Notes under the pieces: generated by a model
Told to the model about the DNA's origin: nothing
The model's input: the letters and a program-made list of their open reading frames with translations, nothing else
The model's database searches: none
Source: a virus
Lineage: Duplodnaviria; Heunggongvirae; Uroviricota; Caudoviricetes
DNA: 6,621 bases
Reading direction: 5' to 3' (one strand)
Virus record (IMG/VR): IMGVR_UViG_3300007747_000100
Shown here: positions 1,730 through 6,488 of the stretch, one piece after another
Layout: every line of letters starts with the position of its first letter
Numbering within the stretch: the stretch's first letter is position 1
Program-made: the position numbers and the translations under genes

Positions 1730-2358
1730 GTGGCAGCCTCCTTCAGATAGCAGGTTACGCTACCACCGGAAACGCCAATTTCGCTGGTGGTAGCCCAGAC
1801 AGGGTTGGCGTAACCGGCTCTGAAGGATACCGGCGCTTCCGAAGAAGCCCCCGCCTGAGCCACCATTGATTGACAAAGGCGCTGGATTATACACCAACGC
1901 CCAAAAAATGGGTGAGTCAGACCTACGACATAAAAAAAGACGCTCGGCGCGTCATATGTCGCCTTCAGAATTTTCAGGACGCCAATCCCGGCACCCGTTT
2001 TATGAGGTGCCTTATAACCATAAACCGTGTTGCCGCATAACGGCAAGCTCTTTTTTATGGACTCCGAAAACTCACTATTGGAAGTAACGTCACGCGCGTG
2101 GACGAAGGTTTTTGTGGAGTCACTACACGAGCAGAGAAAGCCATCTACGACCAGAAATTCTCTGGCATAGCCGCTGACCTTCTCAACGCTAACACCATCG
2201 ACCGTAATTTCTGACATAGTTAAGGCATCCGCTCCTACCACCAGCAAATGATAAACTTTGCTTGTATCTGCTGTATTAATGTCTGACTTTGCTGTCATAT
2301 TGCTGGATTTTGGCGACATACCAGCCAGTGAAAATGTCTTCTTCTGGACGGGTATCAT
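1730..2358 (-). CDS. hypothetical protein, 5' portion of the 344-aa track ORF; 3' end unresolved (possible frameshift/pseudogene or genuine overlap)
   Basis: ATG 2358..2356 overlaps the stop of the 59-aa ORF (ATGA), GGAGG with 7-nt spacer upstream. The frame stays open to 1324, but downstream of about 1730 the evidence favours two separate small genes. The other two minus frames have stops at 1765..1763 and 1757..1755, just upstream of the next gene's RBS. Contains terminator-like hairpins on both strands. Confidence 0.35.
1932..1953 (-). terminator. terminator-like hairpin plus T-run on the minus strand, inside the long ORF
   Basis: On the minus strand: GACGC / GCGTC stem (1939-1953 in plus coordinates) with a 5-nt loop, followed by seven T (plus-strand A-run 1932-1938). 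The same bases encode ...[10 protein letters not shown] in the ORF frame. Confidence 0.3.
2030..2056 (+). terminator. terminator-like hairpin plus T-run on the plus strand, inside the long minus-strand ORF
   Basis: Stem TTGCCG (2030-2035) / CGGCAA (2041-2046), loop CATAA, then GCTC and TTTTTT (2051-2056). Confidence 0.35.
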
Positions 2359-2534
2359 TGGTTAACCTCCGCGAACTCCTTCATGAAACGCGCCAGCGGT
2401 TGTACGCATGGCGATTGATACCCGTCGCGATAAAACGTCACTCGGTTGTGAGACACGCTTTCGACAGTAACGAGTGCTCCGTGGGCATCTTTGTAGCGTT
2501 TTTGTGGTTGTGGTATTCCTGTTGGCTTAGACAT
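2355..2534 (-). CDS. small hypothetical protein, 59 aa (trimmed from track ORF 2355..2621)
   Basis: Internal ATG at 2534..2532 preceded by GGAGG (6-nt spacer) and overlapping the TAA of the AntA-like gene by 8 nt. The track's longer N-terminal extension would lie out of frame inside that gene. Stop TGA 2357..2355. Confidence 0.5.
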   Translation of the reverse strand: MSKPTGIPQPQKRYKDAHGALVTVESVSHNRVTFYRDGYQSPCVQPLARFMKEFAEVNQ

Positions 2535-3360
2535 TGAGCGCCTCCAGACGCTTGGCGAGCCAGCGTTGCGACAGGTGGGTGAGTTCTCCTTTGCGCTGCT
2601 CATATTCCATGCCCATATCAATTAACGTGATATTGGTGCTTTCGAGATATGAGAGGTGCTCAAGCTGTTCTGCGTTCATATGGTCGCGAGGTTCGCCAGA
2701 ATAGCCATTTATCCGCGCCCACTGCTTAGCAGTTAGCCCACCAAGAACGATACGAGAAATCATATTGCTCTCGTTTGTGTAGTGGTGTTGCTGCGTCGTT
2801 TTCCCCTGCTCGGCACGGGCCATGTTCAGCGCATCGCACATTGGCTTAAAGTTGTTTGCGGCACTGATACGGGCTTTTAGCTGGCGACGATAGCGGGCGG
2901 CGATTTCAGGCACGGTACGCTGTAATTCTTCCTCGCACTGGATGAAATAACGACGGATAGCGCGACCCTGATCATTGCGTTCGATCATTGCCAGTTCTTT
3001 CGCCATTCCGACACTTAACAGATAGTCTTTGCCGGGTCTGCCAGAGTGCTTAATCTTGCTGTAAGCCGCGCCATTCGGGCTTTTCCCCAAATTTGGGGAA
3101 ATTGTTTTATGGACTGAGTAATCGTGCCCAATGGTGAAGTCATATTCAGAGATGCGATCAGTGATCCATGTAGAGAAGTCTTTTCCCACGCCCAACGCTT
3201 TGTGTAACGCTTTTGCGCTAACAATATTGGTTTCACGCCCACCTATATGACCAGAAATAACCGGGACAATTGCGGCAAATTCATTACCGTTAATTGTGCC
3301 CAGAGAGGCGTTCAGATGAGGGGCGGCCTCAGAAATTAATCTGCTTTTTTCGATGTTCAT
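2527..3360 (-). CDS. putative phage antirepressor-like protein (AntA-type N-terminal domain), 277 aa
   Basis: Track ORF; ATG 3360 with GGAG (7-nt spacer). The N-terminal region (...NIVSAKALHKALGVGKDFSTWITDRISEYDFTIGHDY...) resembles the AntA/antirepressor domain as I recall it; this is a family-level call from memory, not a search result. Confidence 0.6.
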   Translation of the reverse strand: MNIEKSRLISEAAPHLNASLGTINGNEFAAIVPVISGHIGGRETNIVSAKALHKALGVGKDFSTWITDRISEYDFTIGHDYSVHKTISPNLGKSPNGAAYSKIKHSGRPGKDYLLSVGMAKELAMIERNDQGRAIRRYFIQCEEELQRTVPEIAARYRRQLKARISAANNFKPMCDALNMARAEQGKTTQQHHYTNESNMISRIVLGGLTAKQWARINGYSGEPRDHMNAEQLEHLSYLESTNITLIDMGMEYEQRKGELTHLSQRWLAKRLEALNV

Positions 3361-3372
3361 TTTTAGTCTCCG

Positions 3373-3678
3373 TTAGGCGGCGTTAAACGCGTCCGGGTAG
3401 AGTTTCAGAATGTCGGCAATTTCCTGCTGAGAAAGTCCGTTGTGATCATTTATGTTCGCAAGATGGTTAACATGAGTGATCACTTTCAGAACATCACCAC
3501 GGCAGGAGAAACGGTAGCGAAGGTGTGTTCCGATACCATCAGGATTCTTTTCGTCGATACGCTCCAGAGTGATTCCAAGCTGGCGTTCTAACTCTGTTGC
3601 ATAGTTACGACCAGAAGACAGACGGCAGTAGCGAAGAATGTCATTTTCTGTCCATCCCTCTATACCAGTACGCAGCAT
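3373..3678 (-). CDS. hypothetical protein, 101 aa
   Basis: Track ORF; ATG 3678, weak AAGAG upstream; 12-nt gap to the next gene; same strand and operon context as alpA. No family recognised. Confidence 0.6.
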   Translation of the reverse strand: MLRTGIEGWTENDILRYCRLSSGRNYATELERQLGITLERIDEKNPDGIGTHLRYRFSCRGDVLKVITHVNHLANINDHNGLSQQEIADILKLYPDAFNAA

Positions 3679-3690
3679 ATAGACTCTTAG

Positions 3691-3716
3691 CCGCCTGTAA
3701 TGGGCGGTTTTTCTTT
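3691..3716 (+). terminator. hairpin plus T-tract in the alpA-to-101-aa intergenic gap, terminator-like on the plus (antisense) strand
   Basis: CCGCC (3691-3695) / GGCGG (3702-3706) stem with a 7-nt loop, followed by TTTTTCTTTT (3707-3716). On the coding (minus) strand there is no U-run after the hairpin. Confidence 0.3.
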
Positions 3717-6451: not shown

Positions 6452-6488
6452 AAAAAAGCCCGACATTTCGCGGGCTTTGTGGTTTTTT
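6452..6488. terminator. bidirectional rho-independent terminator
   Basis: GC-rich stem GCCCG (6458-6462) / CGGGC (6471-6475), extendable to AAAGCCCG/CGGGCTTT, with an 8-nt loop. It is flanked by an A-run (6452-6457) and a T-run (6483-6488), so it reads as hairpin plus U-tract on either strand. Confidence 0.6.

Follow-up and report, generated by a model that had tools for sequence, protein, structure and literature searches.

The DNA analyzed here is a 6,621-nt stretch of viral DNA (Caudoviricetes; IMG/VR record IMGVR_UViG_3300007747_000100), which we call the window. It is an integrase-bearing island, near-identical copies of which adjoin yicC in 177 complete Escherichia coli genomes, and it carries alpA-like, antA-like, and DUF4222 genes followed by a long minus-strand open reading frame (ORF) of 344 aa, which RefSeq labels as "ash family protein." In the 177 complete genomes the locus is present solely as this coding sequence, and no RNA genes are annotated across the ORF in the one RefSeq locus that we inspected. 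A previous sequence-only reading had described two terminator-like hairpins and a promoter-like pair as lying inside annotated coding sequence, which is correct, the coding sequence being the "ash family protein." Downstream of icd there are small ORFs and a P4-alpha-like DUF5906 primase gene, which in the matching RefSeq locus has about the size of P4 alpha, whereas the ant gene is absent there.

According to our analysis, the interval holds two structured RNA genes, both identified by Rfam scan, and a short Icd-like gene identified by the NCBIfam model NF033153 in a frame other than that of the long ORF (frame 0 for icd and frame 1 for the long ORF). Neither the RNA genes nor the Icd-like gene had been recognized in the sequence-only reading. 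Table 1 reports the coordinates of all the features. The ATG of icd has a strong Shine-Dalgarno sequence and lies 53 nt after C4. The long ORF remains open across icd and ends with a 72-aa ORF, for which no family match was found.

Table 1. Minus-strand genes, RNAs, and signals identified in the window, in the order of transcription
Feature	Position	Strand	Details
DUF4222 gene, upstream	2355..2621	-	Its stop overlaps the start codon of the eta-like ORF (ATGA)
Eta-like ORF, 344 aa	2358-1324	-	Pfam Phage_ASH PF10554; RefSeq "ash family protein"
Predicted PLE-like promoter of the IsrK transcript	2058-2017	-	A-tract 2056-2051; -35 TTGCCG 2046-2041; -10 TATGGT 2022-2017
IsrK/seqA-type small RNA, three hairpins	2010-1933	-	Rfam isrK RF01394, full-length match (model 1-77), 67.8 bits vs gathering score 50
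Candidate intrinsic terminator of IsrK	1953-1932	-	Stem GACGC/GCGTC 1953-1939; U7 1938-1932
Spacer hairpin directly 5' of C4	1902-1877	-	Arms GGGCGUUGG / CCAGCGCCU
C4/CI-type antisense RNA	1870-1783	-	Rfam C4 RF01695, match to model 1-87, 79.9 bits vs gathering score 45
Leader, seqC equivalent	1782-1730	-	b2 UUGGCGU 1778-1772; a2 UCUGAAGGA 1747-1739
Icd/Kil-like gene, 64 aa	1729-1535	-	NCBIfam NF033153, 70.3 bits vs cut-off 25
72-aa ORF	1542-1324	-	Start codon overlaps the stop of icd (ATGATTAA); terminal part of the long ORF, in frame with it

Loci for comparison were chosen by the Icd-like protein alone, in order to avoid bias toward any RNA or reading frame. The sample consists of 18 loci from different enterobacterial species, alongside which P4 was compared. 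C4 was found in all 18 of these loci, 50 to 54 nt upstream of icd, and isrK scored above threshold in 17 of them. The seqA and CI regions of P4 likewise give scores with the two Rfam models, which are reported to detect relatives of CI and seqA (PMC10111431). Further Rfam matches to Trp_leader, DdR11, petD, and CRISPR-DR10 were dismissed, all of them being far under the respective gathering scores.

The Rfam isrK model was built for the IsrK family of Gifsy-1, and IsrK has been called a structural homologue of P4 seqA (PMC4825925). Typical of the family are also a stable small RNA of about 77 nt and Hfq binding. In our alignment, hairpin 1 of IsrK is 97.7% paired, with both partners changed in five pairs, and hairpin 2 is 95.8% paired, with both partners changed in two. 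The hairpin and U-run at the 3' end of the isrK match coincide exactly with the minus-strand hairpin and T7 to which the sequence-only reading had drawn attention; the element is present at 1953 to 1932 as described and corresponds to the IsrK/seqA terminator. Hairpin and U-run are found in all 19 aligned sequences, and the terminator is conserved in 17 related loci and in P4. The five core pairs are 95 to 100% paired across these 19 sequences and include three G-C to C-G double changes, while the outermost of the six specified pairs is formed in 5 of 18 sequences. With a z score of -2.7 against shuffled sequences, this hairpin is the sole clearly nonrandom element among the three that had been pointed out, and of the two hairpins it alone would act as a functional terminator, by analogy with the known systems discussed below.

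The second RNA, C4, starts 62 nt downstream of IsrK and folds at -46.4 kcal/mol (z = -4.8) into a long closing stem with two internal hairpins, a shape supported by covariation; the consensus of C4 plus the spacer hairpin contains 16 pairs with compensatory changes, mostly in C4. Two recognition boxes are exposed on it, a' in a loop (UCCUUCAGA, 1827 to 1819) and b' in a single strand (ACGCCAA, 1811 to 1805). Each has two exact complements in the window: a1 (1969 to 1962) and b1 (1985 to 1979, in the loop of hairpin 2) within IsrK, and a2 and b2 in the leader, where a2 overlaps the Shine-Dalgarno sequence of icd (GAAGGAGG). A further leader segment (1767 to 1759) is complementary to the 3' strand of C4. 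Across 20 loci the box sites in C4, IsrK, and the leader covary three ways: a' takes at least 11 different sequences and b' takes 6, and in every locus both target pairs change along with them, a few a1 boxes pairing with C4 through G.U.

The spacer hairpin immediately 5' of C4 folds at -17.9 kcal/mol (z = -2.4) and shows covariation in the 11 loci whose isrK and C4 are 62 nt apart. Its loop (UGUAUAAU) contains a perfect TATAAT on the operon strand (1891 to 1886), which we considered as a candidate promoter specific for C4. However, a -35 hexamer is lacking, 4 of these 11 loci do not have the TATAAT, and the spacers of 21 to 25 nt are too short to fit such a promoter.

Upstream of the isrK start we found, in this order, an A-tract (ATAAAAAAG), GGCTTGCCG, an 18-nt variable stretch, the hexamer TATGGT, 6 nt, and isrK. 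In 17 loci the elements of this predicted promoter keep their positions, which align with TTGCCT-18-TATAGT of P4, although in the window it matches the consensus at only 8 of 12 positions. The place taken by this conserved layout is that of the constitutive promoter within P4 eta (PMC10111431).

The same segment, read on the opposite strand, is what the sequence-only reading had taken for a second terminator. The plus-strand stem TTGCCG/CGGCAA (2030 to 2046), followed by GCTC and by six T residues ending at 2056, is indeed present, with 6 bp of which 4 are G-C pairs. Nevertheless, this element is the predicted IsrK promoter seen from the other strand: its T6 is the conserved A-tract, the -35 hexamer supplies one arm, and the second arm (2030 to 2035) falls in the variable spacer. 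The two hairpins are hence not a convergent pair of terminators, one being the terminator of IsrK and the other its promoter in reverse. Outside the window, all 6 bp of the hairpin are formed in just one locus, a close relative, and we did not find a hairpin with a T-run at the corresponding site in P4. At -8.2 kcal/mol (z = -1.5), its stability is equaled in 19 of 200 shuffled sequences, and with 9 terminator-like sites the window as a whole shows no enrichment over shuffles (6.6 ± 2.3). The earlier caution that terminator-like elements could be coincidental therefore holds for the plus-strand hairpin, whose stability is at chance level and which is confined to one lineage. The suggestion of an internal attenuation point of the operon is right for the minus-strand hairpin, which is the IsrK/seqA terminator and whose counterpart in Gifsy-1 is read through by a subset of transcripts (PMC4825925).

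Two other explanations of this segment have to be weighed. The sequence-only reading had proposed a roughly 150-nt antisense RNA, which would lie opposite IsrK, start from a plus-strand promoter at 1866 to 1893, and end at 2030 to 2056, converging with the minus-strand terminator. We find this very unlikely, even though its hexamers (TTGATT at 1866 to 1871 and, after 16 nt, TATACA at 1888 to 1893) do exist in the sequence, as does the hairpin with T6, whose 6-bp stem is perfect in the lineage of the window. As a promoter, the pair is a chance match, agreeing with the consensus at 8 of 12 positions: the window has 78 matches with at least 4 of 6 positions in each hexamer, about 1 per 170 nt of strand, where shuffles give 73.5 ± 8.8, and a stricter promoter scan of the window did not return the pair. 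The -35 is the 5' end of C4 (AUCAAUGG) in complement; that end reads AAUUAUGG in most loci, so that the hexamer is not conserved. The -10 mirrors the loop of the operon-strand spacer hairpin, and neither of the two is conserved as part of a promoter. The proposed terminator, as described above, has a stability within reach of shuffled sequences and is absent from P4 and from most loci. Moreover, the three plus-strand ORFs overlapping 1324 to 2537 are short (69 to 82 aa) and all nested within minus-strand genes, which leaves no credible plus-strand gene reading into the site; the one of them that was scanned (1866 to 2087) has no family match. No antisense partner of IsrK is reported in the literature that we searched. 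The antisense RNA is not supported by these observations.

Alternatively, the dyad TTGCCG-N5-CGGCAA over the -35 hexamer could be functional in some other way, either as an operator for the internal promoter or as an RNA hairpin in eta mRNA made from an upstream promoter. In its favor, the dyad columns pair above slid controls (3.7 of 6 against 1.4 to 2.7), and the dyad recurs with 5 bp and other bases (TGATG/CGTCA) in locus L016 and with 4 bp in P4. Still, four or more contiguous pairs are formed in only 3 of 14 distinct variants, and the fixed TTG of the -35 hexamer, along with a conserved AAC codon in the eta frame, accounts for part of the signal. Pairing is slightly better on the operon strand than on the plus strand (means of 3.7 and 3.1 of 6 pairs, respectively), which speaks against the antisense RNA. 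A role as conserved terminator or operator was rejected for the plus-strand hairpin, its conservation being partial and no better on the plus strand. We deem a function of the dyad improbable, and to our knowledge there is no regulator acting at it.

In the reading that we favor, and hold with considerable confidence, this interval represents the RNA immunity region of a satellite or island of the P4 kind that is integrated in E. coli, with IsrK/seqA, C4/CI, and Icd/Kil inside an Eta-like ORF. It is supported by the RNA family memberships, the covarying structures, the complementarity of the target boxes, the promoter layout, and the conserved reading frame. The P4 immunity region aligns with the window position for position, and the two share the order of elements: a promoter, the isrK/seqA hairpins with a terminator, C4/CI, a leader with the second target pair, and an Icd-like Kil 50 to 54 nt past CI. 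In both, a long Eta-type Phage_ASH ORF begins upstream of the internal promoter and spans seqA and CI. P4 Eta itself combines Phage_ASH with an Icd-like part, i.e., the same pieces of architecture as in the window, and P4 Kil scores 76.1 bits on NF033153.

In P4, the ORF in the eta frame starts with three consecutive Met codons (MMM) and has 197 to 199 aa, of which the last 65 aa are Icd-like; this ORF and its end, with matching sizes, are the Eta and Kil proteins described by Forti et al. 1999. The evidence for Eta translation in that work reportedly consists of nonsense mutations and their suppression. Several differences accompany these likenesses. In P4, kil is the in-frame terminal part of eta, whereas in the window icd lies out of frame (141 versus 142 nt, counted from the C4 start), and it is not Kil but a different gene, the 72-aa ORF, that closes the long ORF. 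This mismatch, a minor variation on the nesting of kil in eta, is shared by 7 of the other 18 loci, while icd and the eta-like ORF have a common frame in 11 related loci and P4. The spacer from isrK to C4 measures 62 nt in the window and 107 nt in P4. The upstream gene coupled to the long ORF is the DUF4222 gene in the window, where antA and DUF4222 genes lie between alpA and eta, and an alpA homologue in P4 (PMC10111431). The a' and b' boxes also differ from those of P4, which implies a different immunity specificity. The features that we counted against a P4-type reading are the 8 of 12 promoter match, the icd/eta frame mismatch, DUF4222 as the coupled gene, and the -35 dyad.

The window also resembles the immI region of P1/P7, in which C4 carries a' and b' and has targets a1/b1 upstream and a2/b2 downstream, the latter over the icd ribosome-binding site. 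This likeness is drawn from the Rfam C4 and the NCBIfam Icd-like models, both of which match the window. In immI, ant follows icd, whereas the window has no ant. The P1/P7 mechanism is said to be translational repression with polarity (Biere et al. 1992).

A third counterpart is the isrK-STnc1160/orf45-anrP region of Gifsy-1, where, as in the window, IsrK has its own terminator and a CI-like RNA complementary to IsrK lies downstream. There, a subset of transcripts reads through the IsrK terminator, and the CI-like STnc1160 is processed from the read-through (PMC4825925); IsrK and STnc1160 are both highly transcribed in Gifsy-1 lysogens (PMC7067206). By position arithmetic, the pairing of IsrK G28 and G31 with orf45 C162 and C159 would be equivalent to the b1-b' pairing. 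However, the cistrons downstream are orf45 and an antirepressor in Gifsy-1 but an Icd-like gene and a satellite replication operon in the window, and Gifsy-1 IsrK has been shown to activate translation in trans. Gifsy-1 is not among the phage matches listed.

The long ORF calls for a separate account. Its ATG overlaps the stop codon of the DUF4222 gene (ATGA, 2358 to 2355), which suggests translational coupling. It matches Phage_ASH with 117 bits over aa 113 to 221, corresponding to 2022 to 1696 of the window, so that the match is coextensive with the -10 hexamer, IsrK, C4, and the leader. This coextension, together with the genuine Icd-like gene sitting in a different frame, led us to the initial hypothesis that the ORF is spurious, "Ash" being no more than what one obtains by translating conserved RNA genes in silico, with no protein ever made from it. 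In all 19 loci, however, the eta frame is free of stops for 189 to 656 codons, while the other two frames contain 1 to 9 stops each. Since the length of isrK varies between loci, the frame was followed from the isrK start to the C4 start: the six distances observed (98, 101, 125, 128, 140, and 185 nt) all leave a remainder of 2 on division by 3, i.e., the insertions and deletions between isrK and C4 are multiples of three. The stop-free frame and the frame-preserving indels led us to reject this hypothesis, against which the coupled start codon also speaks, as does full-length P4 Eta, described as translated from the late promoter in PMC10111431. That the ORF is never translated is, in our view, highly improbable.

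According to PMC10111431, transcripts from the constitutive promoter internal to eta are quickly terminated and processed to give CI, Kil is translated solely on occasional read-through, and full-length Eta is translated only from the upstream late promoter, which prevents termination (Forti et al. 1999, via PMC10111431). The P4 eta/kil arrangement further comprises a Rho-dependent terminator within kil, which is suppressed by translation, and the late promoter upstream.

Carried over to the window, a constitutive promoter internal to the eta-like ORF, formed by the A-tract, the -35 at 2046 to 2041, and the -10 at 2022 to 2017, would give rise to an untranslated minus-strand transcript from about 2010. 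Most of these transcripts would stop at the IsrK/seqA terminator (1953 to 1932), giving a small RNA of 78 nt. Those that read through would bear the spacer hairpin and the C4/CI RNA, and C4 may then be processed out, as in Gifsy-1; for the C4/CI family, the enzyme that acts on the longer precursor is RNase P. Through a' and b', C4 is predicted to pair with two targets, a1/b1 of IsrK and the a2/b2 pair that covers the icd Shine-Dalgarno sequence, which would block translation of icd and, by polarity, silence the replication genes downstream. Transcription arriving from upstream through the alpA, antA, and DUF4222 genes would instead bring along the eta-like start codon, and ribosomes on such transcripts may translate through IsrK, C4, and icd, so that neither hairpins nor termination would ensue. 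In this scheme the activity of the promoter, termination and read-through at 1932 to 1953, C4 processing, Rho polarity, and Eta translation are all presumed by homology with P4, P1, and Gifsy-1. The locus holds a complete RNA immunity switch of the P4/P1 type, which probably decides the expression of the replication genes of the island. The module is a further case of a well-described family, and nothing in it challenges the current understanding.

The main value of the analysis lies in the correction of annotation, as RNA genes go unannotated under "ash family protein" coding sequences. In P4, the "Ash" stretch comprises the old "cI" coding sequence plus the sequence upstream of it, and epsilon is the next gene downstream. 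PF10554 has been used as a marker of epsilon (PMC8628076); because "Ash" maps to the eta/cI region and epsilon lies downstream of it, PF10554 is not an epsilon marker but a marker of the P4 eta/cI immunity region, which affects the scoring of P4-like satellites. We would go further only tentatively: it is conceivable, though we lean slightly against it, that Pfam "Ash" is no ordinary protein domain, its conservation being imposed by the overlapped promoter, RNAs, and leader, and the ORF being selected only for a translatability that overrides termination, even where, as in the window and seven other loci, icd is read in a second frame. If this is true, the many "Ash family protein" annotations and PF10554 "epsilon" matches actually mark RNA immunity modules. 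The recognition boxes covarying across the loci, for their part, constitute a ready catalogue of immunity specificities.

According to our analysis, the 3′ strand of the C4 antisense RNA stem (window ~1794-1786) is complementary to a leader segment (1767-1759, minus strand), which lies about 15 to 24 nt past C4 in all loci, and the two strands covary in the examined loci, P4 included. Judging from these sequences, their pairing would form an alternative helix that places b2, one of the second target boxes before icd, in its loop, resembling the way in which hairpin 2 of IsrK presents b1. As a separate observation, the eta-like ORF contains a Chi sequence, GCTGGTGG, and the 11-nt stretch GCTGGTGGTAG at this site (window 2245-2235, minus strand) also exactly complements the 3′ end of C4.

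Directly 5′ of C4, we found a further hairpin (window 1902-1877, minus strand), which covaries in the loci with a 62-nt spacer. On the operon strand its loop reads as a perfect TATAAT (1891-1886), for which no −35 hexamer is recognisable. This hairpin may be a signal for processing, or it may serve as a weak promoter specific to C4.

The recognition boxes of C4 are diverse, with at least 11 variants of a′ (C4 positions 44-52) and six of b′ (positions 60-66) in 20 loci, among them satellite phage P4 and the loci L003 to L020, chosen by their Icd-like protein. The different variants presumably represent distinct immunity specificities. In the Raoultella locus L013, the pair of boxes is identical to that of the window (CCUUCAGA / ACGCCAA). 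In a phage collection (307 records), the isrK-C4 module was also found in numerous lambdoid phages, both Stx-converting and others, mostly without annotation or under coding sequences named "hypothetical protein," "Ash family protein," "Icd protein," or antirepressor.

When the window, P4, and L003 to L020 were compared, icd shared the frame of eta in 11 loci and in P4, and was out of this frame in the window, L003, L004, L009, L012, L015, L017, and L019. In the out-of-frame loci the eta frame is still free of stops over all of icd, which gives an overlap of 64 codons in two frames.

Positions of icd and of the PF10554 match in the window
Feature	Coordinates	Remark
icd	1729-1535	inside eta-like ORF 2358-1324
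PF10554 (Phage_ASH)	2022-1696	profile match

The epsilon profile for detecting P4-like satellites in the work of Moura de Sousa and Rocha 2021 (PMC8628076) is PF10554. The region of P4 matching this profile is the eta/"cI" immunity region together with sequence upstream of it (2501-2836), and PF10554 does not map to P4 epsilon (3030-3317), which is the next gene.

The matching RefSeq locus, L001, comprises 6785 bases versus 6621 in the window, and their 99.9%-identical match falls into four pieces. The gene following alpA encodes 143 aa in L001 (9454-9885) versus a 101-aa ORF in the window (3373-3678). The alpA-like gene and the one after it are minus-strand genes, and between them lies a second plus-strand terminator-like hairpin (3689-3709). 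It has a stem of 9 bp with a T-rich tail and is stronger than its plus-strand counterpart at 2030-2056, which the sequence-only reading had described as terminator-like. A hairpin at 6455-6478, just past the integrase gene on the yicC side, at the island boundary, is scored as a terminator on either strand.
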